Below are positions 3,041-37,403 of a DNA stretch of 64,000 bases, one piece after another. A program made the position numbers and the translations under genes. A model generated the notes under the pieces. The model searched no databases. It had not been told where the DNA came from and worked only from the letters and a program-made list of their open reading frames with translations. Position 1 is the stretch's first letter. The number at the start of each line of letters is the position of its first letter. The DNA comes from an uncultured Lentisphaerales bacterium. GTDB lineage: Bacteria; Verrucomicrobiota; Lentisphaeria; JABSQK01; UBA12247. The DNA is taken from the NCBI GenBank assembly GCA_943788985.1, contig CALSSJ010000012.1:171679-235678 (forward strand). The letters are read 5' to 3'.

Positions 3041-3058
3041 GCTGCTATTCGCTGTAGG

Positions 3059-3109: not shown

Positions 3110-4232
3110 GCAGGAATCGACAGACTGCGACTCACTCGTGGGAGCTTTATTTTTGGCACAGAGGGGACACCGAGGGAATGCGGGAGATGGTTTGCCTCGT
3201 TTCGTCCTGCCAGCTCGTTGTGCTCTGAGTCCTCTGTGGTAGAATTTCTTCATCGCGGCTTCACGCCCAGATGCGGTCTGCGGACCGTTGGATTAATATT
3301 TGCCTTCTTGATAGCGCGAATGGCCGCCGTGTTGGATTCTCCAGTATCCCTGGAGCCGTTCAGTGGCTGCGAGAAGTGCAGTCCGAGGCCGCAGCCGTAC
3401 GTGATTGACTTCCACTGAATTCGCGCCACCTTTTCGCTGGGACCTGCGATTCCGTATGGCTGGCCAGCTTCAAGAGAGACTTCGGCTGCGTTGATGCCAA
3501 TCTGGTTTTAATTCAGGATAGCGAATGACAATTCGTTCTGCCGTTTCGCAAGCGTACTTTTTTGAGCTGCGTCCAAATCAAGCCCGCTATAGGCATGTTT
3601 TCTGCGGTGAGCACCGGGCCCCGGGCGCGACGTGGCCAAATTGTCAGAAGCCAATGCTCCGAATGCTCAGCCTCGACTGTGAAGATCAAAGATTGGGATT
3701 GGTCGAGTTGGGCATACCAGTGCTCGATTTAGTGTTTTGCTGGACCTGCAATTTGGGAGAGGGTCGCACTGCGTACCGGCTGGATCCAAGTGGCGGAACT
3801 TCGCTCATTCAGTAGGACGAGGGCGGCGTCGAGGAAGACTTTCCATACGAGGATTACCCAGCCTATTTCCCGGAAGCAGAAGTGGAGTTGGCGCCACTTC
3901 CTCAGAAGGTCCAAGAACTGATCAGCGGCGTAAACGCCGGAGGAGAAATGTCCGGCCTGCGGGGCGTTGATGGAGCTTCTTGCCTGATCACGGAGAATTT
4001 CGCTGCACAAGCGATTGGCGAGTTTCTCATGGGATTTTGAAAATCCCCTTGAGGAAGACGGCGCCTCGGTGCGCAAATTCGCGTATTCCACCTCGAAAAC
4101 TGCTGTCTGCGCGGAATGCCGGTAATCAGTCAGTTTTCACACGTTGACGATTGCGCGCGGTCGTGAACTGTTTCGATCGACAACGATCATAATCGATCAT
4201 TAAAGTAACAGCCAAGCAAAAGACCACAGGCG

Positions 4233-12695: not shown

Positions 12696-13577
12696 ATGCC
12701 CGATACGATTCTCCGCTCACAGGTCTTTCGCGACGCCGAGTTCCCGCTTGCCGTACAGCGGATCCCGCAACACGGAAGCGGCGACGATCAACATGCCCAC
12801 GCGTTCCACGAACTCGTCCTGATCATGAAGGGACATGGGACCCATGCTGTGGGGCCAGAAAGCTACAAGTTGGAGACCGGCGACGTCTTTGTCATTCAGG
12901 GCGACACCACCCATGGCTACATGGAGACCGACAAGATGACGCTCGTTAACATTCTCTACGACCCTGATCAGTTGCGGATTCCGCATGCGGACCTTGGCGG
13001 TCTACCCGGGTACCAGGCGCTGTTCTGTGTCGAGCCGCAGGTGCGCCGCCATCGGAAGTTTCAGAGTCGCCTGCGATTGGGCATTGACGAACTGGCCCGC
13101 GCCAGCAACCTGGTCGCCGAGTTGGCCGAAGAGTTGACCAGCAGGACGCCAGGCTACCGTTTCATGGCCACTACGCATCTCATGCGCCTGCTGGGGTACC
13201 TGTCTCGCTGCTACTCCCAACTCGATCTGGACCTGACCCGACCAGTAAACCAGATCAGCAAGGTCCTTGGATACCTGGAACGACACTTCACCGAGCCGGT
13301 GCAGGTCGCGGATCTGGTCAAGGTCGCCGGCATGTCGCAGACGTCGTTGATGCGCCACTTTGGCCAGGTAATGGAGCGCTCACCGGTCGACTACCTCATC
13401 CACCTGCGCGTCAACCATGCCAAGCGGTTGCTGCGCGGCACGCAGTTCTCCATCAGCGAAGTGGCCCTGCAATCCGGCTTCTGCGACAGCAACTACCTGG
13501 CCCGCCAGTTTCGTCGTGTAGCTGGCGTCTCGCCGCGCGAATACCGCCGCCAGGCGGCGGGAAGCGCGTTGCCTTGA
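12696..13577 (+). CDS. AraC family transcriptional regulator (cupin sensor + HTH), divergent from the minus-strand sugar block
   Basis: N-terminal cupin (HAHAFHELVLIMKG…GDVFVI) and a C-terminal AraC HTH (LLRGTQFSISEVALQSGFCDSNYLARQFRRVAGVSPREYRR). Confidence 0.8.
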   Translation: MPDTILRSQVFRDAEFPLAVQRIPQHGSGDDQHAHAFHELVLIMKGHGTHAVGPESYKLETGDVFVIQGDTTHGYMETDKMTLVNILYDPDQLRIPHADLGGLPGYQALFCVEPQVRRHRKFQSRLRLGIDELARASNLVAELAEELTSRTPGYRFMATTHLMRLLGYLSRCYSQLDLDLTRPVNQISKVLGYLERHFTEPVQVADLVKVAGMSQTSLMRHFGQVMERSPVDYLIHLRVNHAKRLLRGTQFSISEVALQSGFCDSNYLARQFRRVAGVSPREYRRQAAGSALP

Positions 13578-14755: not shown

Positions 14756-16135
14756 ATGTTGACAACAAGGAGCAGCCCATTGAGAAACCATCTTTTCCTA
14801 TTGCTAACGATTCTGGTCGTCTGGGCGGCAGGCGCCGAATCACAGAAGCCAAACATTGTGGTCTTCCTTGCTGATGACATGGGCTGGGGCGATTCGTCCC
14901 CCTATGGCCACCCGCTGGTGAAGAGTCCCAACTTGGACAAACTTGCCGCCGAGGGCGTGAAGCTTACCCAGTGCTACTCGGCATCGGGCGTCTGCTCACC
15001 ATCGCGCTCAGCTATTCTTACCGGGCGGACTCCGTATCGCAATGGCGTCTGGCGCCATTTGTCTGGGAATCACGAAGCCCACCTGCGGGCCAGCGAGATT
15101 ACCTATCCTGAGCTGCTCAAGGGTATTGGCTACGAGACTTGCCATGTCGGCAAGTGGCATCTTAACTCGAAGCAGCAGTTCAACACGCCCGACTTCCCTC
15201 AGCCCGGAGACCACGGCTACGATCACTACATGTTCACGCACAACAACGCCAGCCCCAGCCACAAGGACCCCGACAACTTTGTACGTAATGGCGAGCCTCT
15301 CGGCGAGATGGAGGGCTACTCCGCGACTCTCGTCGCCACAGAAGCAGTGCGCTGGCTCAAGGAGGTGCGCGATTCGAGCAAGCCTTTCGTCCTCTCAATT
15401 TGGGTGCACGAACCGCACAAGCCGATCGCTACCGACCCCCGATTTGCCGGGCAGTACGACGGGCACAAGAATAGCGTCTACATGGGCAATATCACGCAAC
15501 TCGACAATGCCCTGGGCATGGTCATGGCAGAGTTGGATGCGCAGAAGGTCAGCGACAATACACTACTGATGTTCAGCTCCGACAACGGCCCGATTGCTGG
15601 CGTCGGCGGTAGTTCTGGCGGCTTGCGCGGCGGCAAGCGAAGCGATCACGAGGGAGGAATTCGCGTACCCGGCATTGTCCGCTGGCCTGGGCAGATCAAG
15701 CCTGGCACGGTCAGTGATGTCCCTGTGATTGGCTCCGATGTCTTTGCCACTGTGCTCGACATGGTCGGCATCCCGCTGCCGACGGATCGCACGATCGACG
15801 GCGTCAGCATGCTGCCCGCCTTTCAAGGTAAGCCAGTGAAGCGCAAGGTCCCGCTCTTCTGGCGTACCCACGTCTCGGGAGCCGATAATCGGGTTGCTCT
15901 GCGCGTGGGCGACTGGAAGATCGTCGGCAACGACACCATGACCGAGTTTCAGCTCTTTGAGATTCAGAAGGACTGGAAGGAAGAAAACGACCTCATGGCC
16001 AAGATGCCAGAAAAGGCCGAGGAGCTGAAGAAGATCCTGTTCAAGGTCTGGCAAGATATCGAGACGGAAGGGCCGAGCGAATGGTGGAAGGCCGAACGTG
16101 CTAGGCCCATGCGCGGCGCAACACTGAACTACTGA
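14756..16135 (+). CDS. Formylglycine-type sulfatase (arylsulfatase family) with signal peptide
   Basis: Hydrophobic N-terminus; canonical CSPSRSAILTG (C-x-P-x-R) motif; FLADDMGWGD and GKWH boxes. Confidence 0.85.
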   Translation: MLTTRSSPLRNHLFLLLTILVVWAAGAESQKPNIVVFLADDMGWGDSSPYGHPLVKSPNLDKLAAEGVKLTQCYSASGVCSPSRSAILTGRTPYRNGVWRHLSGNHEAHLRASEITYPELLKGIGYETCHVGKWHLNSKQQFNTPDFPQPGDHGYDHYMFTHNNASPSHKDPDNFVRNGEPLGEMEGYSATLVATEAVRWLKEVRDSSKPFVLSIWVHEPHKPIATDPRFAGQYDGHKNSVYMGNITQLDNALGMVMAELDAQKVSDNTLLMFSSDNGPIAGVGGSSGGLRGGKRSDHEGGIRVPGIVRWPGQIKPGTVSDVPVIGSDVFATVLDMVGIPLPTDRTIDGVSMLPAFQGKPVKRKVPLFWRTHVSGADNRVALRVGDWKIVGNDTMTEFQLFEIQKDWKEENDLMAKMPEKAEELKKILFKVWQDIETEGPSEWWKAERARPMRGATLNY

Positions 16136-16155: not shown

Positions 16156-17601
16156 ATGAAATACTTCCCTACCCGCATCGCCTTAGCTGTCTGCTTCGTC
16201 TGCGGCATCGCGTCCGCCGAGGCTACCAAGCCGAACGTGCTCTTCATCTTTGCCGATGATATGAGCTACGAAACCATTGGTGCTCACGGCATGCTGGATA
16301 TCGATACGCCGCATCTCGACACCTTGGTCGAACGCGGCGCGACCTTTACCCACGCTTACAACATGGGGGCCTGGGGCGGCGCGGTGTGCGTCGCCAGCCG
16401 CGCGATGCTTAACACCGGACGCTTCCTCTGGAACTCCCAGAAGACCGACTTGAAGAGCTACTGCGCAGACAATCTGATGTGGTCGCAGCGGATGAAGCAG
16501 GCTGGCTACCAGACCTACATGACCGGAAAATGGCATGTACCTGTCAGCGCGCCGGGGATTTTTGATGTGGCTAAAAACGTGCGTGCTGGCATGCCGAAGG
16601 GGAGTGGCTATGACCGCCCGAAGGACGCGGCAGCCTATGCCGCGGGCTGGAAGCCCTGGGAAACGAAGTACGGGGGCTATTGGGCTGGCGGTAAGCACTG
16701 GAGCGAGGTCGTCGCGGACGATAGCGTTGCATTTCTCGAACAGGCCGCAGATGATGACAAGCCCTTCTTCATGTACTTGGCCTTCAACGCGCCCCACGAC
16801 CCACGCCAAGCGCCCAAGGATTACATCGACCGCTATCCGCTCGAACGCATCAAGGTGCCGGAGAATTTTCTTGAAGAGTATCCCCACGCCGACGCTGGCT
16901 ATGGCAAGCGCCTGCGCGACGAGCGGCTGATGCCCTATCCACGCACAGAGTTTGCCGTGAAGGTCAATCGCCAGGAATACTTCGCTCTCATCACCCACAT
17001 GGACGTCCAGATCGGGCGTATCCTCGCTGCCTTGGAGACGTCCGGAAAAGCCGACAACACCTACATCGTCTTCACTGCTGATCACGGGCTTGCGGTTGGG
17101 CACCACGGCATGTCTGGCAAGCAGAACATGTACGACCACAGCGTGCGCGTCCCTTTCATGGTGGTCGGGCCCACCGTTAAGGCAGGCTCGAAAGTCGATG
17201 CACCGATCTACTTGCAGGATGTCATGGCCACCTCGCTGGAGTTGGCTGGTGGCTCTCAGGATGGTGTTGCCTTCAAGAGTCTACTGCCCATGCTGCAAGG
17301 GAAAAACACGGCGCACTACGACACCATTTACGGTGCCTACATGGGGCGGCAGCGCATGATCAGCAAAGACGGCTGGAAGCTGATCGTTTACCCCACGGTC
17401 GGTGCGAGCCGCCTGTTCAACCTCACGAAAGACTCTAACGAGATGGTGGATCTGGCTGGTAATCCAGAATACGCCACCAAACTCCAGCAGCTTACTGCTC
17501 AGTTGGAAACCATGATGGACGAGATGAACGACCCCATGTCTTCGCTCACCGCTGGTGACTTTCCCGAGGCAAGGCCTAAGAAAAAAGCAAAACACGAATG
17601 A
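16156..17601 (+). CDS. Sulfatase (C-x-A-x-R variant) with signal peptide
   Basis: IFADDMSYE, CVASRAMLNTGR and GKWH motifs; lysine-rich C-terminal tail. Confidence 0.8.
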   Translation: MKYFPTRIALAVCFVCGIASAEATKPNVLFIFADDMSYETIGAHGMLDIDTPHLDTLVERGATFTHAYNMGAWGGAVCVASRAMLNTGRFLWNSQKTDLKSYCADNLMWSQRMKQAGYQTYMTGKWHVPVSAPGIFDVAKNVRAGMPKGSGYDRPKDAAAYAAGWKPWETKYGGYWAGGKHWSEVVADDSVAFLEQAADDDKPFFMYLAFNAPHDPRQAPKDYIDRYPLERIKVPENFLEEYPHADAGYGKRLRDERLMPYPRTEFAVKVNRQEYFALITHMDVQIGRILAALETSGKADNTYIVFTADHGLAVGHHGMSGKQNMYDHSVRVPFMVVGPTVKAGSKVDAPIYLQDVMATSLELAGGSQDGVAFKSLLPMLQGKNTAHYDTIYGAYMGRQRMISKDGWKLIVYPTVGASRLFNLTKDSNEMVDLAGNPEYATKLQQLTAQLETMMDEMNDPMSSLTAGDFPEARPKKKAKHE

Positions 17602-17708
17602 TAACGCCCTGGGAATGGTGAAGCCGCGAAAGAACGCAATGAACTAGGAAATAGGATGAATTGTGTGCAGCTTAATTTGGTCTTTGTGGTGGGCCTTGCG
17701 TGTGGGGG

Positions 17709-17732
17709 GGCACCGCGCTCGCTAGCGGTGCC
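17709..17732. terminator. GC-rich hairpin (ggcaccgc…gcggtgcc, 8-bp stem) downstream of the sulfatase; no U-tract
   Basis: Seen in the sequence; function uncertain. Confidence 0.2.
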
Positions 17733-17835
17733 TGCGCTGTGCTCAGCAGAACGAACCAAGTATCTCGACAATTGAATCAGGACCGCCAAGTATCTGAGCT
17801 TGCCATTCCAGGCGTATAGCACTAGAATCATAGGT

Positions 17836-18261
17836 ATGAAGCAAACTCTCTCGATAAACCGCGCGCTCGCCGTGAGTGGCTGTGCCCTGATGCTGGTCGG
17901 ACAACTGCTGGCGTCCATCACGTGTCTGTCCGTGTGCTCATTCCCGGCGACGGCCCGCTCGGCGTCGGATGCCGTGCCTTGCAGCTCCTGCTGCAGTGCC
18001 CCGGCCCCGCAAACATCGGCAACCACTTCGACGCTGACGCCCTGTAAGGATTGCCCGATGCCGTGCTGTGTGAACACGGACCAAGAGCAATTGAATGCGG
18101 CGCTTCAGAACCACCGCGTTGCCAGTCCGGCAGTGGTCACGCTCTCGACGAAAGTACGTTGGGCTGGCCCGCAGCCCAAGGTTCGGACGAGTCCCCAATT
18201 CTTGCCCCCCGCCTCGCCGCCCCCTCCGCTCTACCGAATGCACTGCGCCCTGTTGACCTGA
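17836..18261 (+). CDS. Small Cys-rich secreted/membrane-anchored hypothetical protein (CSSCCSAP, CKDCPMPCC motifs)
   Basis: The 141-aa ORF has GC3 of roughly 75%. The N-terminal hydrophobic segment ALAVSGCALMLVGQLLASITCLSVCSF is followed by 10 further Cys and a Pro-rich tail. It fits exactly between the sulfatase and the HlyD start. Confidence 0.4.
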   Translation: MKQTLSINRALAVSGCALMLVGQLLASITCLSVCSFPATARSASDAVPCSSCCSAPAPQTSATTSTLTPCKDCPMPCCVNTDQEQLNAALQNHRVASPAVVTLSTKVRWAGPQPKVRTSPQFLPPASPPPPLYRMHCALLT

Positions 18262-18329
18262 TAGCCGGATGCCTCGCTCGCATCCCGTCCCCCCGAACGC
18301 TATCCGCTATCAATCAACAGGAGAGCCGC

Positions 18330-19865
18330 ATGTCCTCATCCAATCTTCTGGACCTACAATCTGAGTCGCCCAGCCGGCCCGCTCCGCGGCCGCGCATTCG
18401 TTGGTGGTCCCGAGTCCTCGTCCCAGCTATTCTTTTTCTTAGTGTCGCACTGCTGCTCATTGCCGCGACTTGGCAACACTTTGTACCTGCGCAAGCCGTC
18501 CGCGTCGAGACGGCGATTGCCAAGCAGGTCGGTGACCGCGCCCGGGCCAGTTCTGTGGTGCAGGCCGCGGGCTGGCTAGAGGCGTTTCCCTACCAGACGC
18601 ATATCACCGCCCTGGCCGATGGCGTTGCCAAGGAAATTTTCGTGCTCGAAGGCGACTCTGTAAAAGCCGGTCAAGCCGTCGCCCAGCTGGATCCCGCGGA
18701 CGCTGAGTTTGCTGTGCGTAAATCCCGGGCCGAACTCGCTGCTCGCAAGGCCTCGCTGCAGAAGGCCAGCGTCCGTTTAGAGGCTGCTCGCCAGACGTGG
18801 GAGCATCCCGTCGCTCTGGAACAAGCCAAGGCAAGCAGCGCCGCAAGTGTTCGCGAGCAGCAGTCGATGATTGCCGAGATGGAAGCGCGTATTGCCGAAC
18901 AGATCGCTGTCATGAATCAGGCAAAACGCGATGCGGAACGCGTTAAGGGCATGGTGGCAGACGACGTTGTGAGTGCGCAGAATGGCGAGCAAGCACAGGC
19001 AATATTCGCCGCAGAACGCGCCGGTTTGGATGCCTTGACGCGTAGCCTAGCGGCCGCCAACGACCGGGTCGAGCGCCTTGCTATTGACCACACAGCCGCG
19101 ACCGAAAACCTGGAGTTGCGCATCTTGGATCGCCAGGAAGTCGATGAAGCCAAAGCCGAACTTAGCCAAGCCGAGGCAGCCGTGGTCCTGGCCGAAGCGG
19201 AACTGGCCGATGCTGATCTCCAGCTCCGGCGGATGACGATTCTATCCCCAATCGACGGGGTCGTAGTCACCCGTCATAAATCCCCGGGGGACAAGGTGAT
19301 GCGCCACATGGACCACCCGCGTTCGGCGACCATAGTAAGTCTCTACGATCCCGCGCAGCTGCAGGTTCGCGTCGACGTGCCGCTGGCTGATGCCGGGCAG
19401 ATTGGCGTCGGCCAAGACTGTGAGATCACCACCGACGTGATGCCCAACCGCAGCTTCGCGGGCAAGGTCGTGCGCATTCTCCACGAGGCAGACATCCAGA
19501 AGAACACGCTCCAGGCCAAGGTCGCCATCGCCGAGCCCAGCCCGGAATTGCGCCCTGAAATGCTCTGCCGCATTCGCTTCCTCGCTCAGGCAGCGTCAGA
19601 GAACGAACCCGCGACGATCCACATCCGGACCTTCGTTCCCCAGCGCGCTATCGCCAATGGCCAGGTCTGGCTGGCCCAGATGACGACTGACCGCTTCGCC
19701 ACCGTGAACCCCGTTTCGGCCACGGGAGGCTTGGAGTTGGAGGGCTGGCGCGTCGTCGATGGCGTCCACGCCGGCGCCTTGGTTATCGTCGATCCCCCCT
19801 CCGATCTCGAAGCTGGGCAACGGGTTCGCGTCATTGACTCCTCTGGCATCACGAGGCAGCCATGA
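18330..19865 (+). CDS. HlyD-family membrane fusion protein (MacA-like periplasmic adaptor)
   Basis: N-terminal TM segment, long coiled-coil (AELAARKASLQKASVRLEAAR…) and a beta-barrel/MP domain. A ribosome-binding-site-like AACAGGAGAG run precedes the ATG at 18330. The last codons overlap the downstream ABC ATPase. Confidence 0.8.
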   Translation: MSSSNLLDLQSESPSRPAPRPRIRWWSRVLVPAILFLSVALLLIAATWQHFVPAQAVRVETAIAKQVGDRARASSVVQAAGWLEAFPYQTHITALADGVAKEIFVLEGDSVKAGQAVAQLDPADAEFAVRKSRAELAARKASLQKASVRLEAARQTWEHPVALEQAKASSAASVREQQSMIAEMEARIAEQIAVMNQAKRDAERVKGMVADDVVSAQNGEQAQAIFAAERAGLDALTRSLAAANDRVERLAIDHTAATENLELRILDRQEVDEAKAELSQAEAAVVLAEAELADADLQLRRMTILSPIDGVVVTRHKSPGDKVMRHMDHPRSATIVSLYDPAQLQVRVDVPLADAGQIGVGQDCEITTDVMPNRSFAGKVVRILHEADIQKNTLQAKVAIAEPSPELRPEMLCRIRFLAQAASENEPATIHIRTFVPQRAIANGQVWLAQMTTDRFATVNPVSATGGLELEGWRVVDGVHAGALVIVDPPSDLEAGQRVRVIDSSGITRQP

Positions 19866-20563
19866 GCTTCATACTCTGTCGCGACATTCGTCGTATCTAT
19901 CGCCGCGGTGACGCGGAGATCAAGCCACTAGACGGCCTCAGCCTCGACGTCCAAAAGGGCGAGTTTTTGGCCCTAATGGGGCCGAGCGGGAGCGGCAAGA
20001 CGACGCTGCTCAACCTCATCGCCGGGATCGACCAGCCCACCTCCGGGCAGCTGATCATCGACGGCAATGACATCTCCACGCTCTCTGCTGGCAAGCTGGC
20101 ACGCTGGCGCTCGTCCTACATCGGTTACGTGTTTCAACTCTACAACCTCATTCCCGTGCTGACCGCCTACGAAAATGTGGAAGTGCCGCTGCTGCTTCAG
20201 TCGCTCAGCAAGCGCGAACGCCACGAACGCGTCGCGGCTGCGCTGGACCTGACAAACATCGCCGACCGTCACGATCACTATCCTCGCCAGCTATCCGGCG
20301 GCCAGGAGCAGCGTGTGGCCATCGCTCGGGCGCTGGTCACGGATCCGCAGATCATCGTCGCCGACGAGCCGACCGGCGACCTGGATCGCGAGTCGGCCGC
20401 CGCCATCATGCAGTTGCTGCAGCGACTCAATCGCGAGCTGGGGCGGACGCTGATCATGGTGACGCATGACGAGAAGGCGACCCGCTTCGCCACCCGCACC
20501 CTGCATCTGGACAAGGGGCTGCTGGTGGAGTCAGCCGCCGGAGCCATGGCAGACGAGGACTAA
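19862..20563 (+). CDS. ABC transporter ATP-binding protein (MacB/LolD/FtsE-like)
   Basis: Walker A GPSGSGKTT, Q-loop, signature LSGGQEQRVAIARAL, Walker B IIVADEPTGDLD. Confidence 0.9.
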   Translation: MSFILCRDIRRIYRRGDAEIKPLDGLSLDVQKGEFLALMGPSGSGKTTLLNLIAGIDQPTSGQLIIDGNDISTLSAGKLARWRSSYIGYVFQLYNLIPVLTAYENVEVPLLLQSLSKRERHERVAAALDLTNIADRHDHYPRQLSGGQEQRVAIARALVTDPQIIVADEPTGDLDRESAAAIMQLLQRLNRELGRTLIMVTHDEKATRFATRTLHLDKGLLVESAAGAMADED

Positions 20564-20564
20564 G

Positions 20565-21713
20565 ATGTTAAAGCCCAGATACCTGCCATTTGTCGTCAAA
20601 CACATAACCCGACACCGCTGGCGCAGTGCCCTGACCGTGCTCGGAGTGGGCACCGCGATGTTTCTATTCTGCGGCGTCCGGGCAATGCACGAAGGCGTGC
20701 AAGAGGCGACCGTTTCCAGCGCCGGCGAAACCACCCTCGTGGTTTACCGCGAGAACCGCTTCTGCCCCTTCACCAGTAAGCTCCCGCAGGACTACGGCCG
20801 CCAAATCGCAAAGCTGCCAGGCGTCGATTCCGTGGTCCCGATGAAGATCATGGTCGGCAACTGCCGGGCATCGCTGGACGTCATCACCTTTCGCGGGGTA
20901 CCGCCGGCTGACTTCAACAGTGTTGCCGCTAACTTTCAGGTCGTCGATGGCTCGGTGGCCGAGTGGCGAAAGCGAAGCGACGCCGCCTTGATCGGTCTTC
21001 GCGCTGCGACTCGACGCGGATTGCGCGTGGGCGATCGACTCGAGATCGCGGGGATCACCATCACCATCGCCGGCATCGTCGAATCCGACCGGCCACAGGA
21101 TCAGGACTCGGCCTTTACCCATCTGGATTTTCTGCAGCGGAGTTCCGGCGCCGGGCTTGGCGAGGTCACTCAGTTCAATGTTAGTGTCAGCGACCCGCAG
21201 CAATTGGACGAGGTCGCCCGACGCATCGATGCGTTCTTCGCAACTGCCCAGGATCCGACGGCCACATGGAGTGAAAAAGCGTTCACGGCGCGCGCTGTGA
21301 CCGACATTATTGAGCTGGTGAGTTTTGCTGCCTGGCTCGGCTGGGGTGCACTTGTTGCGGTCTTCGCACTGGCCGCCAACGCCATCATCCTGAGCGTCCA
21401 AGAACGCGTGCGCGATCACGCCGTGCTACAGACCCTCGGTTTCGGAACCGGGCTTATCGCGCGGCTGATTGTCGTCGAGAGCGCGTTGCTGAGCCTGCTG
21501 GGTGGGGCGATCGGAATCGCGGCCGCCGCGGCCGTGTTGCATTGGGGGCGTTTTTCCCTGTCTGTCGAAGGCCAGAGCGTGCAGGCCAACACGAATCCAG
21601 AGACCATTGTCCTTGGCCTTGTCTACTGCCTGCTGCTGGGAATCGGCGCCGGGCTCTTTCCCGCCTGGCAGGCAAGCCGTCGCGACATCGTTACCTGTTT
21701 TCGGGCGGTATAA
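20565..21713 (+). CDS. ABC transporter permease (FtsX/MacB-type: N-terminal TM, periplasmic domain, C-terminal 3 TM)
   Basis: N-terminal TM, a ~200-aa periplasmic MacB_PCD-like region, and a C-terminal FtsX domain (…LGFGTGLIARLIVVESALLSLLGGAIGIAAA…). The ATG follows the ATPase stop by 2 nt. Confidence 0.8.
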   Translation: MLKPRYLPFVVKHITRHRWRSALTVLGVGTAMFLFCGVRAMHEGVQEATVSSAGETTLVVYRENRFCPFTSKLPQDYGRQIAKLPGVDSVVPMKIMVGNCRASLDVITFRGVPPADFNSVAANFQVVDGSVAEWRKRSDAALIGLRAATRRGLRVGDRLEIAGITITIAGIVESDRPQDQDSAFTHLDFLQRSSGAGLGEVTQFNVSVSDPQQLDEVARRIDAFFATAQDPTATWSEKAFTARAVTDIIELVSFAAWLGWGALVAVFALAANAIILSVQERVRDHAVLQTLGFGTGLIARLIVVESALLSLLGGAIGIAAAAAVLHWGRFSLSVEGQSVQANTNPETIVLGLVYCLLLGIGAGLFPAWQASRRDIVTCFRAV

Positions 21714-21714
21714 G

Positions 21715-22875
21715 GTGCGCATTCTCCCCTACGACTATGCCGTTCGCAACCTTGGCCGGGCACCCTTGCGCCTTGTGGCCACGGTCGGCGGCTGCACCAT
21801 GGTGGTGCTGATCATGATGGCTGCCACCGCCTTTGTGCAGGGCATGCGCCGATCGCTGACCCCCAACTTGCAGAGCCGCAATGTGCTCTTGCTCAGCGCC
21901 GGTAGCGAAGAAAGCCTTGAGCGCAGCCAGATTAGCGCGGCCATACCGGGCCACGTGCGGGCCTCAGTCACCGGCATCAAGCAGCGGCTTGGCGAGCCCT
22001 TCATCTCACCTGAGATCCATCTCGCGCTGATTGTTTCTCGACCGCAGCAAAGCGAAGAGCTACGGGCGATCGTTCGTGGTGTCGACACCGGCGCCTTTCT
22101 CGTCCATTCCCGCGTGCAGTTGACCGCTGGCCGCCCGCCGCAGCACGGGCACAACGAACTGCTCGTTGGCGCCCTCGCCGCGGAAAAGCTCAATATCCCG
22201 GAAGCCGACCTTGCCATCGGCAAGTCGCTCATCGTCGAGGGCAACCCTTGGACCATCGTGGGCCGATTTGCCGCGCCAGGGACGGTGATGGATGCGGAGA
22301 TTTGGACAAGCTACACCGATCTTCAGGTCGCCACGCAGCGCAACAGCCTGTCCTGTATCGTTATGACACTGGATGAGGCAGAGCTGGCCGACCTTGCCGC
22401 CTGGACCGCGGTGCGATTGGATTTGGAGCTTGTTGCCATGAGTGAAGGCGAGTATTACGCGTCCCTGCGGCAATTCTACGGACCGGTGCGCGCCATGATC
22501 TGGGTGACAGCTTTGCTGATGGCCCTGGCCGGTATTCTTGGCGGGCTCAACACGCTATTTGCAGCCTTTGCGGCGCGAACACGCGAGCTCGGCATGCTGC
22601 AAGCGCTCGGCTACTCGCGCGGTGCGATTCTGCTGAGCCTGCTGCAGGAGTCTATGCTGGCTGGAGCCGCAGGCGCCTTGATCGGAGCGCTCATTTCCTA
22701 CTTTTTATTGCATGGCAACGCTGTACGTTTTTCTATGGGCGTGTTTGAGTTGCAGGTCGACGCGGTCACAGTCTTTATCGGCATGCTCAGCGGTCTCGCG
22801 CTTGGCTTTATCGGCGCCCTGCCGCCAGCCTTTCGCTGTCTGCGGGAACCCATTCCCAGCGCCTTGCGCACCTGA
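21715..22875 (+). CDS. Second FtsX/MacB-type ABC permease (GTG start)
   Basis: Same architecture (…GMLQALGYSRGAILLSLLQESMLAGAAGALIGALISYF…). A GTG start lies 2 nt after the previous stop, preceded by taaGG. Confidence 0.7.
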   Translation: MRILPYDYAVRNLGRAPLRLVATVGGCTMVVLIMMAATAFVQGMRRSLTPNLQSRNVLLLSAGSEESLERSQISAAIPGHVRASVTGIKQRLGEPFISPEIHLALIVSRPQQSEELRAIVRGVDTGAFLVHSRVQLTAGRPPQHGHNELLVGALAAEKLNIPEADLAIGKSLIVEGNPWTIVGRFAAPGTVMDAEIWTSYTDLQVATQRNSLSCIVMTLDEAELADLAAWTAVRLDLELVAMSEGEYYASLRQFYGPVRAMIWVTALLMALAGILGGLNTLFAAFAARTRELGMLQALGYSRGAILLSLLQESMLAGAAGALIGALISYFLLHGNAVRFSMGVFELQVDAVTVFIGMLSGLALGFIGALPPAFRCLREPIPSALRT

Positions 22876-22911
22876 TTTTTCTTCACCCCAACCCCACCCA
22901 CAGAGATTCCC

Positions 22912-23421
22912 ATGATGAAAATTCGCCACCTCCTCGCCCTCGCAGTCCTCGCCGCCATTGTCACTGGCTGCGGCAAGAAAGAGTCAGCCGCGACACCTAT
23001 GCCTGCGGTCAGCCTGATCCCTGAGGCGCTCATTGTCAGCAGCATCGCAGGAACCGCAGTCACGCCAACGGCCGCCAAAATCACGGCCAAAGCCGGGGAC
23101 GCCATTGTGCTCACCGGGCACATCGCTGGCCGCGCCCAGCCCTTTGTTGCCGGTCGCGCCATCTTCACCTTGGTCGATACGAAATTGCCACAATGTACGG
23201 ATGGGTGCAGTGCCCCATGGGACCTCTGCTGCGAAGAAGCTGCGGATATCGCAGCCGCTGCCGCCACCGTCCAGGTCGTCGATGCCGAAGGCAACCCGCT
23301 AAAGCAGTCCTTAGAAGGTCCACTCAAGCCTGGCCAGACCATCGCCGTGTCCGGCAAAGTAAAGCAAAACGACGGCATAATCTTCGTCATCAGCGCCGAC
23401 CAGATCGCCGTGTTGAAGTAG
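22912..23421 (+). CDS. Cys-containing lipoprotein (lipobox VTGC; CTDGCSAPWDLCC motif)
   Basis: Signal peptide plus lipobox LAAIVTGCGKK. The Cys cluster C-x3-C-SAP-x4-CC resembles the C-x2-CC-SAP of the upstream Cys-rich ORF. Confidence 0.65.
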   Translation: MMKIRHLLALAVLAAIVTGCGKKESAATPMPAVSLIPEALIVSSIAGTAVTPTAAKITAKAGDAIVLTGHIAGRAQPFVAGRAIFTLVDTKLPQCTDGCSAPWDLCCEEAADIAAAAATVQVVDAEGNPLKQSLEGPLKPGQTIAVSGKVKQNDGIIFVISADQIAVLK

Positions 23422-23500
23422 TTTTCAGTAATCAGTGGACCGGGAATGAAGCTACCCGGAAGGGGGGATGTCGTATAGCCGGGGTTGTCGCTCCGTGTCA

Positions 23501-23553
23501 GCCATAGATAGGGCATGGCTTGGCAGCTGCCTTTTTAGTTTTTTTCCTTTTTT
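23501..23553 (+). terminator. Putative intrinsic terminator: two hairpins (gccat…atggc; ggcagctgcc) followed by a T-rich tract
   Basis: gccatagatagggcatggcttggcagctgcctttttagtttttttccttttttg lies about 80 nt after the lipoprotein stop. Confidence 0.4.
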
Positions 23554-23676
23554 GCAGAATAACGGGCGAAAACTAGACAGATAGAAAACCTGCTTCAGTG
23601 TCTGTTTTTTATGAATACGGAGCTGGCACCAACTGCTAGTTCCAATGATCCACAGAGTTTGCAATAGAATCCCCCG

Positions 23677-25488
23677 TTGGGCACGATGACAGATCCTACA
23701 GACGCACCGGCTGACTACCGATTTCAGGTCAATCTGAAGGACCTAATCGGGATCTTATCACACCATCTCTACTCTACCCACGACGTGTTTCTGCGTGAAC
23801 TCACGCAGAACTGCTGCGACGCCATCAGCGCCCGACGGCGCGTCGACGCAGAGTTCGAGCCTCTGATTGAATTCGAACTGCTCGAGGGAGGCGACACGCC
23901 GACGTTGCTGGTGGCGGACAATGGCTGCGGCCTAACCGCAGAGGAGATTCACGAGTTTCTGGCTACGATCGGAACCAGCAGCAAGCGGGAAGAAGCAGAT
24001 TTCATCACGACACGGGCAGACTTTATTGGCCAGTTTGGTATCGGTCTTCTGTCCACCTTCATGGTGTGTGACGAGATCGTGCTGCTGACGCGCTCGCACA
24101 AGAGCGAGCAAGCTTATGAGTGGCGTGGGCACAGTGATGGCACCTATACACTCACGGAAAGCGACGCCGATCTCACGGTCGGCACGCGCGTGTTTCTCCG
24201 TGCGTCTGCGGACTCCGCAGATTTGTTCACTGGCGATCAGATCCTAGAACGTTTACGCCACTATTGCAACTACCTGCCAACCCCCATCTTCCTCACCTGG
24301 GCTGACACACGGAAGCAAGTGAATGAGGTGGCGCCCTGGTCGCGTACATGCCCTGCTGCAGATAGCGAAGCGGCGGCTGTCAAGCTGGCACAGCGTTGCT
24401 TTGGCGAGGGGCAGATTCTCGATGTGTTTGCCATTGAAGGGGACTATGTCAGCGGCCACGCCTTCCTGATGCCCTTTCATATGATCGGCGGTGCCCGGCG
24501 TAACGCGGTATACATCCGCAATATGTTCATTGGCGCGAATCTAAATGACCTGATGCCTGATTGGGCCTGCCTGTTTGCGATCGTGCTTAACAGCGATCAC
24601 CTGACGCCCTCAGCATCCCGTGAGGCGCTCTACGGTGACGAGCACCTCGCCGCTGCCCGCGAGGAGATCGAGCGCGCACTCAACGTCTACCTGCGCCGGC
24701 TCGCCAGCGATCGCCCCGCGGTCTTGACCGAGTTGATTCTGCAATACGAGCCACTGCTAAAGAATCTGGCCGCTCAAAATGATCACTTCCTGCAGTGTAT
24801 CTTTGGCGTTCTTACTTTCGAGACCAGTCGCGGTCGCCTGCCATTGAGCGAGGTGCTGGCCGATCCCGGCGGGGCTTCCTTCGTCACGGACGTGGATGAG
24901 TTTCATAAGCTGGTGCCAATCGCCTCGGCCTCTGGCCACGTCGTGATCAACGCTGGCTACGCTTTCGAGCCCGTCCTGATGAGCAAGCTTCATCTCCTGC
25001 ATGGCCCCAAACTGCGCCCGATGGACAGCGCAGCGCTGCTCGCCTGCCTCAAGGAAGTGAACGATCCAGAAGCCGCCGAGTGGGCGGAAACGCACGACCT
25101 ACTCTCCCGCGTGCTGCGTATCTACGGCGTCCGCCCGCGTCTGGTGCGCTTTCAGCCAGACACCATCCCGATGCTCTATTTCCAGGGCGAGGCGCAACGG
25201 GAGGCACGGCGCATGCAGCACTTTGAGGAACAGGCGGATGACCTTTTCCAAAGCGTCCTGTCCGAATTGTCGCTTCCGCCAGATCCTAACGAACTGCTGG
25301 TGAACGTCGAGAATCCTCTAATTCAGAACCTGCAAGCCTGTGGTGACACGGGCTTTGCCGAATCGGTGGCCAAGCTGCTCTATGTCCAATCCCTACTGCT
25401 GGGGCGATATCCTCTAGGCCATCAGGAGTTGCTGCTTCTAAACGAGAACGTCGGTGCGTTGCTGCAGCGAACCTTGCTGGGAGACTGA
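23677..25488 (+). CDS. HSP90 family protein (HtpG paralogue, GHKL ATPase)
   Basis: Block-by-block similarity to HtpG: LYSTHDVFLRELTQNCCDAI (cf. LYSNKEIFLRELISNASDA), LLVADNGCGLTAEEI, IGQFGIGLLSTFMV. At 603 aa it retains middle and C-terminal domains. There is no MEEVD tail. Confidence 0.8.
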   Translation: MGTMTDPTDAPADYRFQVNLKDLIGILSHHLYSTHDVFLRELTQNCCDAISARRRVDAEFEPLIEFELLEGGDTPTLLVADNGCGLTAEEIHEFLATIGTSSKREEADFITTRADFIGQFGIGLLSTFMVCDEIVLLTRSHKSEQAYEWRGHSDGTYTLTESDADLTVGTRVFLRASADSADLFTGDQILERLRHYCNYLPTPIFLTWADTRKQVNEVAPWSRTCPAADSEAAAVKLAQRCFGEGQILDVFAIEGDYVSGHAFLMPFHMIGGARRNAVYIRNMFIGANLNDLMPDWACLFAIVLNSDHLTPSASREALYGDEHLAAAREEIERALNVYLRRLASDRPAVLTELILQYEPLLKNLAAQNDHFLQCIFGVLTFETSRGRLPLSEVLADPGGASFVTDVDEFHKLVPIASASGHVVINAGYAFEPVLMSKLHLLHGPKLRPMDSAALLACLKEVNDPEAAEWAETHDLLSRVLRIYGVRPRLVRFQPDTIPMLYFQGEAQREARRMQHFEEQADDLFQSVLSELSLPPDPNELLVNVENPLIQNLQACGDTGFAESVAKLLYVQSLLLGRYPLGHQELLLLNENVGALLQRTLLGD

Positions 25489-31590: not shown

Positions 31591-32175
31591 CTACTGAGGC
31601 CACCTCGGCATCTTCCGGAAGTCGTTTAGCATCGCCTCTTGACCTTGTGAGATGACCTCCGGTGTCGGATGTACGAGAGGGCATCCTTTTACGGCGATGC
31701 CCTTGCCGTAGACGTACCTTTCCAGTTGGACTAAAATCCCCGAGGCGATCAAGTCTTTCAGCGGCGATAGGACCGTGACCTCGGTCTCCGCCAGATTGAG
31801 AGTTCGCAGCGAAGCAAGGCCTGTGAAACAGGCAACAGATATTAGCTTGGAGTTGGCGCGGAGGTCGAGAGTGGGGATTATTATCAGGACCCAGGCGATT
31901 GCCCAGGCACACTCGTTATCAATCTGGCAACGCCATAGGATAAGCGAGCGCAGCCGTTTGAGAGGCTTTAGCTTCTCTGCGACGTCCTCGCAAGTTTCCT
32001 TGAGTTGGCTAACCTGCTTTGCTCGTAGTTCAGGCTGCCACTCCGGCGGCGAGGGTGAGAGCCACCTGTCATGCCCGAGTAGAGCAAAGTCTTCTCGCCC
32101 TTCATCGCGGACCCGGGCAATGACAGCGTCCAGTTGCTAGTGCGTAATCCGCGGCAGCGTTCCCTCTCTGGCCAT
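31591..32175 (-). pseudogene. Leucine-rich-repeat-like hypothetical protein interrupted by an in-frame TAG at codon 13
   Basis: Minus strand: AAGGA-ATG MAREGTLPRITH-TAG-QLDAVIARVRDEG…LKPLKRLRSLILWRCQIDN…LASLRTLNLAETEVTVLSPLKDL… (LxxLxLxxN-type repeats). The in-frame stop sits at 32137-32139. Confidence 0.35.
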
Positions 32176-32475
32176 CCTTCTGACTCTCGTATGTATACTC
32201 TTTATCTAGGCTGCTTCGGGGCCGTATGGCGGCGCACATTTTATGCGTTCATGTGCAGTGAAATAAGAGGCAAATGCCAAAGATGAAGGCACTGACGGAA
32301 AGTTTTGCGAATTTCTCGCTATACTGCTCGGAGTGACAGCTCGGCGCGAGCTGGCGGGGGGGCTTAGTCAACGACGGGAGTCGCGTGGGACGCTGTGAAG
32401 ACCCGGCGGAAGAACGGCACTGCCGTGCCTGACTACGAACAACGAAATCGTCCAAGGGACGATTGGATCAGCAGG

Positions 32476-34446
32476 TCAGACGACGCGGTCGTTGCCGCCA
32501 TCGATCGGGATCTGCGCCCCGGTGGTCCGGGCGAAGAGGGGGCCAGCAAGGGCTTCGACTAAGGCGGCGACTTCCTGGGAGGAAACTGCGGTCTTGAGCA
32601 GATTGCGGGTGGTGTACTCGGAGACGGTCAGGCCGTAGTTGGCAGCTCGGGTCTCGAGCACGCCATCAGACCAGATGCCGGTGTCGTAGACAGCGTCAGG
32701 ATGAAGGATGTTGACGCGGATGTTGTCGGCGGCTAGTTCGAGCGCGGCGACGCGTACGAGCTGGGTGAGACCGGCTTTAGCCGCGGAATAGGCGACGGCG
32801 CCGGGACCCGGTGCCGGGACGTTCTTGCTGCCGATGACGACGATAGCTGGATCGATGCCCGCACGGAGAAAGGGGATGCTGACCTGGAGTAGATTTTTGT
32901 GCTGGGTGAGGTTGAGCTGCAGGCTCTGGTCCCAGGTTGCATCGCTGAGGGTTTCGATTGGCTCGCCTGGGCTAAAGACGCCCGCGTTGCTGACGACGAT
33001 GTCGAGGCCACCGAAGTGGCGCACTGTGGCGTTTACTGCCTGGCGGATGGCCTCAGGATTGCGCAGATCGCAGATGAGACCGAGGGCCGCCGGGCTGTTG
33101 AAGAGCGTGGTGATTTTTGGGTCTACGTCCAGTGCGACGACGGCCGCGCCAGACTTGAGAAACTGTTCGCAGGTGGCGCGGCCAATGCCGCTAGCGGCAC
33201 CGGTGACGAGGGCAATCTTGCCGCGAAGAGGTGGGGCACTTGCTTGCTTGCGAAGTTTGGCTTGCTCGAGCTCCCAGTACTCGACGTCGAAGATGTCAGC
33301 TGGGGAAAGGGCTTCCCAGCCGCCGAGGGATTCGGCAAGCTGCACGACTTTTGCGGTATGGGCCGCGATGTCGGCGATGATCGCAGCTTCGCGGCTGTCT
33401 GCACCGAGGGCGATGAGCCCGGCACCTGGCCAGATGGCCCAGCGCGGGGCCGGGTCGAGGCAGGTCAGGCCGTCCTGATTGTGCTGGTCGAAGTAGGCGC
33501 GGTAGGCGCTGGCGTAGTCGGAGATGTCTTGCTCGGCGTTGCCAGTCAAGACAACGGGCGTGCGCTTGGTCCGAATGGAATGGTCGGGAGTGACGGGGCC
33601 GCGGGCGCCAATCGTTGCGATGTCGGCACGATCAGCGTAGGCTCGCAGGGCAGGGCTGTCGTCCAGCTTGGCGAGGACTGGGATGCCGCGGAAGCGTGAG
33701 ACGCAGGCGCGCAGCTTTGCCAGAGCCTGAAGGTCTATGGCGGGCTCAGCGGTGGCGCGTGGGGCTAGGGAAGCGCGACTGCTGAGGTATTCTTCTGCCT
33801 GGGTGACGAGCTTGATGTGTTGCTCGTACGAGGCTCGGGCATCGTCATGAAAGGTGAAGAGGCCGTGATTGAGCAGGACGATGCCGTCGAGTTGGTCCCA
33901 GTCGACGTCGCGGGTGCGCTCGTAGACTGCTTTGGCGAGGACGAAGCCAGGCATGACATAGGGAATGGTGAGGATCCGGGGGCCGAAGACTTCGCGGACG
34001 CGGGCTTCATTGTCGGGCGCGTTAGTGATCGCCAGGACGGCGTCTGCGTGGGAGTGGTCGACAAAGCGGAAGGGAATGATGGCGTGCAGGATGGCTTCGA
34101 CGGAGGCGTTGGGGGCACCCGGATCGAGCATGGCGAGGCGCTGTTGGCGGACCATCTCGGTGTCGGACAGGGATGCGCATTTTGCCAGTTGGAGGAGGAC
34201 GTCGAGGCGGAGTGGTGCGAACCCCGCAACTTCGATGGTGGCAAGGTCCCAGCCGCTTCCTTTGACGAACAGGGTCTCGAGCGGCGTGCCGAAGAAGTCA
34301 TTCTCGGTCATCTTGACGCTGGTGTTGCCGCCGCCATGGAGGACGAGGTCAGGGTCTTGCCCGAGCAGGCGTGAGGTGTAAACGCGCAACGCTTTTGGGT
34401 CGTCGCCACAAGCGGCTGCTGCTGAATCATTCCAGAGGCTTTTCAT
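32476..34446 (-). CDS. Bifunctional class II aldolase (adducin/RhaD-like N-domain) / short-chain dehydrogenase-reductase fusion
   Basis: N-terminal aldolase-family domain (LHGGGNTS, HSHADAVLA) plus a C-terminal SDR (TGAASGIGRA, NAG, YSAAKAG). Its ATG overlaps the mtnA stop (ATGA). Confidence 0.8.
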   Translation of the reverse strand: MKSLWNDSAAAACGDDPKALRVYTSRLLGQDPDLVLHGGGNTSVKMTENDFFGTPLETLFVKGSGWDLATIEVAGFAPLRLDVLLQLAKCASLSDTEMVRQQRLAMLDPGAPNASVEAILHAIIPFRFVDHSHADAVLAITNAPDNEARVREVFGPRILTIPYVMPGFVLAKAVYERTRDVDWDQLDGIVLLNHGLFTFHDDARASYEQHIKLVTQAEEYLSSRASLAPRATAEPAIDLQALAKLRACVSRFRGIPVLAKLDDSPALRAYADRADIATIGARGPVTPDHSIRTKRTPVVLTGNAEQDISDYASAYRAYFDQHNQDGLTCLDPAPRWAIWPGAGLIALGADSREAAIIADIAAHTAKVVQLAESLGGWEALSPADIFDVEYWELEQAKLRKQASAPPLRGKIALVTGAASGIGRATCEQFLKSGAAVVALDVDPKITTLFNSPAALGLICDLRNPEAIRQAVNATVRHFGGLDIVVSNAGVFSPGEPIETLSDATWDQSLQLNLTQHKNLLQVSIPFLRAGIDPAIVVIGSKNVPAPGPGAVAYSAAKAGLTQLVRVAALELAADNIRVNILHPDAVYDTGIWSDGVLETRAANYGLTVSEYTTRNLLKTAVSSQEVAALVEALAGPLFARTTGAQIPIDGGNDRVV

Positions 34447-35501: not shown

Positions 35502-35773
35502 GGGACGGACAATACTGCGAATCTGCTGGCAAGCAACTGCTAGCAGTCTGTCGGACTTGGGATGATCCGCTGCAAACCTGCGCGACTTCGGATTATTTCG
35601 CGGGTAATTTGGGTTGGGTACGCAGGGGCATCGGCGAGGTGTCCCCAGTGCACCGGAGCATCCAAAATCCCTCTCGCACTCACCTGCCAATTTACGATTC
35701 ACCACACTAGTGCCTTTTGACTTGATAACGCTGGTGCATAGGGTCGGCGATCGAAACAGCGAAGGAGAGGGGC

Positions 35774-37330: not shown

Positions 37331-37403
37331 GGCGGGAAAACCCGGCCTGTTTTCAGGGAAGTACGTTGCGTTCAGGCAGAGCTGTTGTACTTAGGCGTAA
37401 CGA

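Follow-up and report, generated by a model that had tools for sequence, protein, structure and literature searches.

What does a MacB-type pump expel when the genes on either side of it encode small cysteine-rich secreted proteins? The question is raised by a stretch of 64,000 nucleotides (the window, below) from contig CALSSJ010000012.1 of an uncultured Lentisphaerales bacterium, in which the open reading frame (ORF) listing places six densely packed plus-strand ORFs at 17836-23421, with intergenic gaps or overlaps of -4 to 68 nucleotides. The original prediction, made from the nucleotide sequence, was of a MacAB-like exporter bracketed by two related Cys-rich proteins, either handling soft metals or exporting Cys-rich peptides. 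Our analysis consists of comparative genomics, and we give an even chance to the reading that all six genes form a single operon for a self-contained envelope module, which would detect a thiophilic (soft or borderline) metal and remove it from the periplasm. The six genes are as follows.

17836-18261, plus strand: ORF1, a Cys-rich exported protein of 141 residues with 11 Cys.
18330-19865, plus strand: HlyD-family adaptor (membrane fusion protein) with an N-terminal membrane anchor, matching HlyD_D23, HlyD_3 and TIGR01730.
19862-20563, plus strand: ABC ATPase resembling LolD and the MacB nucleotide-binding domain (NBD), matching ABC_tran; its start overlaps the adaptor stop by 4 nucleotides.
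20565-21713, plus strand: FtsX1 permease, matching MacB_PCD and FtsX.
21715-22875, plus strand: FtsX2 permease with a GTG start, matching MacB_PCD and FtsX.
22912-23421, plus strand: lipoprotein of 169 residues with the lipobox VTGC.

The true start of the adaptor is the ATG at 18330, which is preceded by a CAGGAG ribosome-binding site; position 18051 is only the start of the maximal ORF.

Both Cys-rich genes belong to the pump, as had been proposed. A survey from the lipoprotein side, in which one genome per species was scanned, gave 30 loci from Planctomycetota and Verrucomicrobiota, plus one labelled Longimicrobiales; cultured Luteolibacter, Haloferula and Rubritalea are among the carriers. 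The adaptor, ATPase and two FtsX genes lie immediately upstream of the lipoprotein gene in 28 of the 30, and a small signal-anchored Cys-rich ORF precedes the adaptor in all 25 of these loci that have sufficient upstream DNA. A survey from the pump side, with an FtsX1 profile against metagenomes, gave 80 loci (53-61% identity). Here the lipoprotein is found downstream in 47 of the 48 loci with sufficient DNA, and an ORF1-like gene upstream in 44 of 46 (a strict rule found 38, and inspection another 6); neither the rule nor inspection found it in the duplicate loci L058 and L060. Rule-based detection and inspection by eye were used for ORF1 instead of a hidden Markov model built from the family alignment A3, which detected it in only 8 of 50 pump loci. 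The two permeases are always paired in related loci. Because no further neighbour gene recurs in the neighbourhoods of these loci, the six genes are a self-contained module. One locus from Phycisphaerales (L011) has a seven-gene version, in which a gene assigned by eye as outer-membrane factor (OMF)-like (1116-3143) separates ORF1 from the adaptor; this arrangement speaks for a tripartite pump. The operon in the window has no OMF gene, and among the loci only L011 has one inside the operon.

The closest relative of the module (L001/P0003) has 74-91% protein identity in the lipoprotein and pump and 55% in ORF1. It comes from a metagenome-assembled genome labelled 'Rhodothermales' at NCBI, and the label or the binning is doubtful, since nearly all other carriers are Planctomycetota or Verrucomicrobiota. 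Orphan homologues of the lipoprotein, with no pump adjoining, occur at L008:8001-8558 and L009:7995-8552.

The adaptor and the probably heterodimeric MacB-type pump of the original prediction were borne out by Pfam and NCBIfam. The adaptor matches HlyD_D23 (1.8e-17) and HlyD_3 in Pfam and scores 143 bits on TIGR01730 (RND_mfp, cutoff 94.9); its nearest solved relatives are MexJ, EmrA and MacA (E ~1e-10 to 1e-7). The ATPase matches ABC_tran (4.7e-38, 131 bits), and its best NCBIfam matches are LolD, DarD, the MacB NBD and FtsE, the first three of these below their equivalog cutoffs. Both permeases are above the Pfam gathering thresholds for MacB_PCD and FtsX, with 3.3e-18 (67 bits) and 2.5e-13 (50.6 bits) for FtsX1 and 2.6e-14 (54.5 bits) and 1.5e-12 (48 bits) for FtsX2, and the similarity of FtsX1 to solved MacB is distant (E ~1e-4). 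With an FtsX-type C-terminal transmembrane (TM) domain (PF02687), the large periplasmic core domain (PF12704) that in this superfamily sits between TM1 and TM2, and an ATPase of the LolD/MacB/FtsE clade, the pump has the defining parts of the MacB, or type VII ABC, superfamily. Scores on the models of individual systems are below cutoff throughout. On the E. coli MacB equivalog NF007826 (cutoff 966) the ATPase reaches 212 bits and the permeases 17 and 13, and on MacA NF008606 the score is 47.8 bits against 342; the NBD is here a separate gene and not fused to the permease. The permeases score 54.8 and 17 bits on LolC/LolE TIGR02212 (cutoff 362), and LolD TIGR02211 gives 230.9 bits against 307.75. 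An HlyD adaptor is present throughout the related loci, unlike in LolCDE systems, which are defined as having no adaptor.

Since FtsX2 is the paralogous partner of FtsX1, the two permeases probably form a LolC/LolE-like heterodimer. They are asymmetric in their invariant residues. In FtsX1 the periplasmic C67 and C100 are invariant in 31 of 31 orthologues, and in FtsX2 the orthologue conservation counts give H131, W197 and C375 as invariant. These five are candidate acceptor residues, which might together form a Cys/His site; we know of no equivalent conserved cysteines in MacB or LolCE.

The lipoprotein carries the invariant motif C95-x3-C99-x2-P102-W103-D104-x-C106-C107 (Cys4-PWD; nucleotides 23194-23232). 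A profile search (E <= 1e-3) places it in a family of 1094 clusters at 50% identity, in which every named member checked is called 'hypothetical', and the motif C-x(2-9)-C-x2-PW[DE]-x-CC is kept in 143 of the 148 best members. There is no Pfam or NCBIfam match, and the profile of the family (A2) matched no PDB sequence. The AlphaFold2 (AF2) model (pLDDT 81.5) is a five-stranded barrel following a disordered linker, with Cys4-PWD between predicted strands two and three. The best PDB matches in Foldseek are oligonucleotide/oligosaccharide-binding (OB) folds, namely Ten1, YgiW, CcmE and the anticodon-binding domain of LysRS (E ~2e-3). YgiW (PDB 1nnx) and CcmE are small periplasmic OB barrels; the lipoprotein differs from them in its low TM-scores (0.38 by query, 0.5-0.6 by target), its 12-15% identity and its Cys4-PWD loop, which is unique to the family. 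A match of the Cys-rich proteins to a metallochaperone family, raised in the original prediction, did not materialize: CusF (PF11604) has no match to the lipoprotein at Pfam E <= 0.1, and the likeness is one of OB fold alone. By analogy with CusF, the lipoprotein is nonetheless a candidate periplasmic partner or metallochaperone that would deliver substrate to the pump. It would do so with Cys in place of the Met/His ligands of CusF, and from a lipid anchor.

About 30 members of the lipoprotein family are tandem duplications of 300-400 residues (P0012, P0013, P0014 and P0031 among them). Some, P0013 among them, have Cys4-PWD in both repeats, others have a degenerate first repeat, and P0031 has an extra C-terminal CGMC...C...C extension.

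The two Cys-rich proteins had been proposed to be related modules on the strength of a shared Cys-SAP cluster. The quoted Cys strings are present in the sequence, and each family has invariant cysteines of its own. The shared motif is not conserved: among lipoprotein homologues the 'SA' varies (GA, GN, GT, SV, AV, DT, ST), and CSAP is conserved in neither family, so the shared tetrapeptide is best read as coincidence. BLASTP gives no alignment of the two proteins and a profile-profile comparison with hhalign gives 0.5% probability, and we rejected their homology.

The coding status of ORF1 had been left in question, and the comparison with relatives settled it in favour of a gene. In L001 and L004 gene callers omit or mis-call the ORF, yet the frame stays open in both and is conserved. 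Differences at first, second and third codon positions number 38, 31 and 64 between the window and L001, and 54, 47 and 80 between the window and L004. Because this pattern fits coding sequence, ORF1 is by sequence comparison a real coding gene. A search of a collection of 5.8 billion proteins found only two homologues, because gene callers miss ORF1.

A signal or TM helix spans residues 5-34, with a hydrophobic window that peaks at 2.37 after an N-terminal K/R region. This helix is the only confident part of the AF2 model (pLDDT >90), and the remainder is predicted to be non-globular. Cys cluster A is C49-x2-C52-C53 (nucleotides 17980-17994) and cluster B is C70-x2-C73-x3-C77-C78 (18043-18069). 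Within the latter, C73-PMP-C77-C78 forms a C-x3-C(C) motif that is conserved in the family as C-x2-[PAQ]-C-C. A run of four prolines (PPPP) follows at residues 128-131 (18217-18228), and the protein ends SPPPPLYRMHCALLT, with the conserved C-terminus LYRMHCALLT before the stop codon. In alignment A3, C30, C52, C53 and C77 are invariant, P125 is near-invariant, and the C-terminus is Pro-rich. Family members have 8-13 Cys, including two vicinal CC pairs. The last Cys cluster and the Pro motif are 43-57 residues apart in 25 of 29 diverse members, and exactly 53 apart in the type found in the window and in most Verrucomicrobial members, with unrelated intervening sequences. Three C-terminal motifs are conserved, each running into the stop codon: LRxHCALxx, FHPPRx and PIRGP...WRL. 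Many relatives end in FHPPRx or LFRPPRx, and the Verrucomicrobial ORF1s (L006, L014, L017, L025, L036, L037 and others) have an invariant PIRGP followed by ...R..LG.WRL and the stop. The PIRGP sequence recalls the arrest motif GIRAGP of SecM. Neither Pfam nor NCBIfam has a match for ORF1 of the window, and Pfam has none for 28 family members even at E <= 10. A possible ORF1 lipobox (VSGC) was rejected, since an alignment inspected by eye shows that it is not kept in relatives.

These features resemble those of CutF from Rhodobacter capsulatus, which is small, is exported through Sec and carries a CxxxC motif and the C-terminus GPPPRL. Copper on the nascent, partly exported CutF chain prolongs ribosome stalling, and the halted ribosome opens a stem-loop in which the ribosome-binding site of the following gene is hidden; in the proposed model, disulfide formation in the nascent chain relieves the stalling (PMC9973294; bioRxiv 10.1101/2025.02.05.636593). 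CutF is rapidly degraded after export, and its Cys-to-Pro spacing is ~45 residues (PMC9973294). Ozturk et al. (2023, mBio; PMC9973294) define CutF-like ORFs as shorter than 150 residues, with a signal peptide, a Cys/His motif for metal binding in the mature part, PP in the last 15 residues and a short same-strand intergenic region, and find them mostly upstream of Cus/Czc components, HlyD_D23 adaptors included. CopL, CruR and CzcI are among such upstream ORFs, as are DUF2946 proteins (PMC9973294; 10.1101/2025.02.05.636593).

ORF1 of the window follows all of these rules, with 141 residues, a signal helix, a Cys motif, PPPP within the last 15 residues and, 68 nucleotides downstream on the same strand, an HlyD_D23 adaptor gene. 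PP in the last 15 residues is found in 16 of 29 diverse family members, and the Verrucomicrobial PIRGP type lacks it. ORF1 thus shares with CutF a length below 150 residues, a Sec signal, C-x3-C, a Pro-rich C-terminus at a similar spacing and a predicted lack of structure, and the CutF end, GPPPRL and stop, closely resembles the FHPPRx and LFRPPRx ends of many ORF1 relatives. It differs from CutF in having no DUF2946 similarity and far more Cys. The PPPP of the window lies 10 residues from the end and is followed by the LYRMHCALLT tail, and the Verrucomicrobial members have PIRGP...WRL and no PP. The hosts are Planctomycetota and Verrucomicrobiota, neither of which is mentioned in the main text of the survey (PMC9973294). 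The genes that follow encode a MacB-type ABC pump, whereas those that follow CutF-like ORFs encode a multicopper oxidase or an RND (resistance-nodulation-division) pump.

The region between ORF1 and the adaptor gene was folded as RNA, with the following result.

18238-18331, plus strand: predicted mRNA hairpin (RNA folding of 18236-18345).

In this prediction the last ORF1 codons, the stop codon and the next bases (18248-18271) pair with 18301-18323, which includes the CAGGAG site, and an outer helix of 18238-18241 with 18328-18331 covers part of the adaptor start codon. The minimum free energy is -35 kcal/mol (z = -4.45), and none of 200 shuffled sequences was equally stable. As in the CutF mechanism, a stem-loop is thus predicted here that covers the downstream Shine-Dalgarno sequence and could be reached by a ribosome at the 3' end of the ORF. 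L001 and L004 are predicted to form the identical structure, with stems that are invariant even at wobble positions and a loop that varies in sequence and length. The wobble positions of the terminal ORF1 codons and the bases after the stop are invariant in both, although about half of the other third positions differ. Pairing of the translation initiation region with the ORF1 3' end has a probability of 0.73 in the window against 0.32 in shuffles. Over 21 loci, with adaptor starts set by hand, partition-function calculations give 0.45 against 0.27 for shuffled 3' ends (Wilcoxon p = 0.002). In Planctomycete loci CCNCC proline codons are predicted to pair with GGAGG, and in Verrucomicrobial loci the terminal ORF1 codons GGGAAUCUGGAGA are complementary to the first adaptor codons. 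In L017 and L036 both sides of the pairing are changed, to GGGAGUC with GACUCCC.

Since only the signal helix of ORF1 is confidently predicted and the 3' end of the gene is predicted to pair with the ribosome-binding site of the adaptor gene, a CutF-like cis-acting sensor or leader is a likelier reading of ORF1 than the stable metal-binding module of the original prediction. By analogy with CutF, it may be short-lived, which would fit its predicted non-globular nature. The arrest point may be PPPP, or termination on the LYRMHCALLT tail.

The suggested link to thiophilic metals gained support from the paralogues of ORF1. With a profile built on 28 ORF1 sequences, 69 more proteins were retrieved, all without a name or a Pfam domain. 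The majority stand at the head of this MacB-type module (L037, L041, L042). A paralogous subgroup ending ...SVWNI is located directly upstream of OEP-CzcB-RND operons (L038, L039) or next to one (L040); of these paralogues, P0230 and P0231 have the upstream position and P0237 the neighbouring one. On TIGR00914 (CusA/CzcA, cutoff 701) the RND proteins score 1245 bits in L038 and 725 bits in L037. Those of L038, L039 and L040 carry the motif DFG-DG[AS]-VEN, which we take to mark divalent-cation heavy-metal efflux pumps. In some Verrucomicrobia the module itself stands among CzcCBA, P-type ATPase and ChrA genes: a Czc-type operon abuts it in L037, L025 and L036, a P-type ATPase gene is present in L025 and L017, and ChrA in L025. 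L039 has a Metal_resist gene and an extracytoplasmic function sigma factor. The proposed metal link draws on the paralogy of ORF1 with leaders of Czc operons, on the metal islands (L017, L025, L036, L037) and on thiol chemistry, and the metal may be Cu, Ag or Hg, or else Zn or Cd.

The Verrucomicrobial CusA/CzcA operons headed by ORF1 paralogues end with a secreted protein carrying C-x2-C-x-NPE[W/Y]-x-C-x-C, which is analogous to the lipoprotein and suggests that each pump type has its own small four-Cys periplasmic partner. Proteins of this family, of ~145 residues, are encoded directly downstream of CusA/CzcA at L025:2425-2859, L037:9463-9897, L038:15713-16153, L039:15879-16319 and L036:884-1264. 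They have no Pfam or NCBIfam match; the terminal C-x2-C-x3-E-[W/Y]-x-C-x-C is invariant and NPE occurs in 4 of the 5. Homology of the lipoprotein with these post-CzcA proteins (p144/p146) was rejected (hhalign 1%), despite the similar four-Cys, aromatic and acidic motif. An ORF at L037:3410-3814 upstream of an OEP-CzcB-CzcA operon encodes a signal-anchored His/Cys-rich protein (HQADHCDHHHEE...CPAEHHHHCGLGC) ending ...DRPPII, which has the architecture of ORF1 and a His-rich metal motif.

A mechanism can be proposed, in which metal binding, stalling, the direction of regulation and the hand-off by a chaperone are what we infer. ORF1 would be exported co-translationally via Sec, so that its Cys clusters reach the periplasm while the Pro-rich C-terminus is still in the ribosome. 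When no metal is present, translation of ORF1 would end fast and the hairpin would keep the pump genes poorly translated. Metal on the ORF1 thiols would block oxidative folding, and the ribosome would linger at PPPP or at the C-terminus, melt the hairpin and expose the ribosome-binding site of the adaptor. The pump would be a type VII ABC machine with one ATPase, an FtsX heterodimer, an HlyD adaptor and an outer-membrane duct encoded elsewhere, in which ATP-driven mechanotransmission, as in MacB, squeezes periplasmic substrate outward. The OB-fold lipoprotein would most likely capture the metal or a metal-thiolate and pass it to the periplasmic domains of the permeases, with their FtsX1 Cys pair, much as CusF feeds CusCBA.

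Several observations weigh against this mechanism. On the RNA side, there are no compensatory pairs in the hairpin among the window, L001 and L004; RNAduplex energies do not differ significantly from shuffles (median z -0.9, with 4 of 21 loci at <= 0.05); in 6 of the 21 loci the ORF1 3' end is predicted to pair little with the initiation region; and a ribosome stalled at the PPPP of the window, 10 codons ahead of the stop, would reach only the outer helix. On the protein side, DUF2946, the Pfam family of CutF, has no similarity to ORF1 or 28 relatives at E <= 10, CusF is not among the top 50 Foldseek matches of the lipoprotein, and His-rich tracts, considered as a sign of metal binding, occur in only 3 of 157 lipoprotein family members scanned and are thus weak evidence. 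The lipoprotein relative P0142 keeps only 2 of the 4 motif Cys, and the Cys4 of the lipoprotein and the Cys pair of FtsX1, like the conserved Cys of FtsX2, could equally be mere structural disulfides in an oxidising periplasm. In genome context, most loci, that of the window included, have no adjoining metal gene or metal regulator, and the metal islands are confined to a few Verrucomicrobiales.

Some of these observations would suit a redox or thiol-stress module. ORF1 would then report on oxidative folding or on thiol-reactive compounds (sulfide, polysulfide, electrophiles), the pump would clear such compounds or misfolded or lipidated material, and the lipoprotein and FtsX1 cysteines would form structural disulfides. 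In the CutF model, release from stalling relies on disulfide formation in the nascent chain, so that any agent that blocks disulfides would act alike, and both the scarcity of nearby metal genes and the relative with two motif Cys agree with this explanation. What makes it unlikely in our view is the specific association of ORF1 paralogues with heavy-metal RND operons whose CusA/CzcA scores exceed the curated cutoff, the metal islands in which some modules are embedded, and the combination of vicinal CC with invariant W and D, which fits a ligand site more readily than a role in structure alone.

Alternatively, ORF1 could be a stable accessory protein resembling CzcI, membrane-anchored or periplasmic and acting in trans, with the hairpin reflecting ordinary translational coupling. 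CzcI-type proteins encoded upstream of czcCBA are thought to be metal-sensing regulators and have no Pro motif (PMC9973294). The Verrucomicrobial ORF1s with no PP in the last 15 residues would fit this, as would a hairpin that shows no covariation and a weak duplex control. Yet no globular domain is predicted in ORF1, the conserved Cys clusters and last ~20 residues at fixed spacing are the signature of a nascent-chain sensor, and the invariance of the terminal wobble positions and post-stop bases among relatives is left over; we regard a protein acting in trans as decidedly unlikely.

Least probable, and in our estimate quite improbable, is that ORF1 and/or the lipoprotein are Sec-exported cargo that a MacB/LolCDE-like machine expels or extracts: MacB-family pumps do export Sec-delivered, disulfide-bonded peptides and proteins up to ~10 kDa according to a review, MacAB-TolC exporting enterotoxin STII and LolCDE extracting lipoproteins are precedents, and a heterodimeric permease with a separate ATPase, whose best NCBIfam match is LolD, is the LolCDE layout, but the scores are far below the equivalog cutoffs (LolCE 55 against 362 bits, LolD 231 against 308), Lol systems lack an HlyD adaptor, paralogues of ORF1 are also found ahead of RND pumps, which transport metals and not proteins, the conserved C-terminal and RNA features of ORF1 would have no role, and the peptide export raised in the original prediction found no specific support for ORF1.

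If the module does sense and expel metal, it differs from the pumps already described. Bacterial metal efflux is known from P-type ATPases, cation diffusion facilitator (CDF) proteins and RND pumps. To our knowledge, no type VII ABC system has been established to pump metal ions. A review describes MacB-type pumps as acting by mechanotransmission from the periplasm to the outside, with PvdRT-OpmQ expelling pyoverdine-metal complexes. With MacAB-TolC, PvdRT-OpmQ and other type VII systems (LolCDE, FtsEX and YbbAP as well), the pump has in common the FtsX four-helix permease, MacB_PCD, the ABC ATPase and the HlyD adaptor. Unlike MacAB-TolC, it has a separate ATPase and two paralogous permeases, a LolCDE-like stoichiometry, together with a MacA-like adaptor, and unlike its type VII relatives it comes with a Cys4 lipoprotein of its own and with two invariant Cys in one of the periplasmic domains. 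The module as a whole is laid out like CusCFBA and CzcCBA, with a sensor or small ORF, an adaptor, a pump and a small periplasmic beta-barrel that has a metal-type motif beside an aromatic residue, but it is driven by an ABC ATPase and not by a proton-driven RND protein.

Neither this module nor a MacB-type metal pump turned up in a literature search. CutF-like sensing is known and so are MacB pumps, but their combination is undescribed in the searchable literature, as are the Cys4 OB-fold lipoprotein family, the sensor lineage outside DUF2946 with its three C-terminal motifs, and the confinement to phyla of the Planctomycetes-Verrucomicrobia-Chlamydiae (PVC) superphylum. The operon is probably a new type of export system for thiol-loving metals. 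A further-reaching proposal is that it represents a founding case of metal-ion efflux on a type VII ABC pump, with its own Cys4 lipoprotein metallochaperone, a permease thiolate site and a non-DUF2946 nascent-chain sensor, widespread and ancestral in Planctomycetota and Verrucomicrobiota; this we advance tentatively, as possible rather than probable. A thiophilic-metal pump of the MacB type would add a new energy-coupling class to metal efflux and a new substrate class to type VII ABC systems. It would also carry the "transmembrane nascent-chain sensing" of the CutF type into the PVC superphylum and beyond DUF2946 sequences, with a new class of genes under its control. Two large unnamed families are missing from Pfam and NCBIfam, the Cys4 OB-fold lipoproteins (~1,100 clusters) and the ORF1 sensors that gene callers often miss. 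The three C-terminal motifs of ORF1 are directly testable as arrest peptides, and several cultured carriers exist, namely Luteolibacter sp. Populi, Haloferula sargassicola NBRC 104335, Luteolibacter marinus NBU1238 and Rubritalea marina DSM 17716.

A candidate promoter lies upstream of the operon.

17800-17828, plus strand: sigma-70-like promoter candidate, TTGCCA-17 nt-TAGAAT (consensus scan, 10/12 matches).

This is a pattern match alone, to a consensus that may not be the promoter type of the host. Both hexamers are kept in L001 and L004 at an identical distance to the start codon. Because the -10 element stops 7 nucleotides short of the ORF1 ATG, the mRNA from which ORF1 is translated may have little or no leader; in L001 a leaderless ORF1 would start with GTG. 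No Rfam family matched in the window at 17000-24000.

The surroundings of the module in the window consist of an AraC-family regulator (12696-13577) and two sulfatases (14756-16135 and 16156-17601) upstream, and a gene for an HSP90-like ATPase (23677-25488) downstream; none of these is kept beside the module in other genomes. Long minus-strand ORFs run antisense to the lipoprotein gene (22698-23516, 272 residues) and to a sulfatase gene (16183-17139, 318 residues), and they are probably shadow ORFs typical of ~60% GC DNA and not genes. Further along the window, 32000-44000 has a sustained positive GC skew of 0.15-0.26 per kb, compared with a skew near zero over the first 30 kb.

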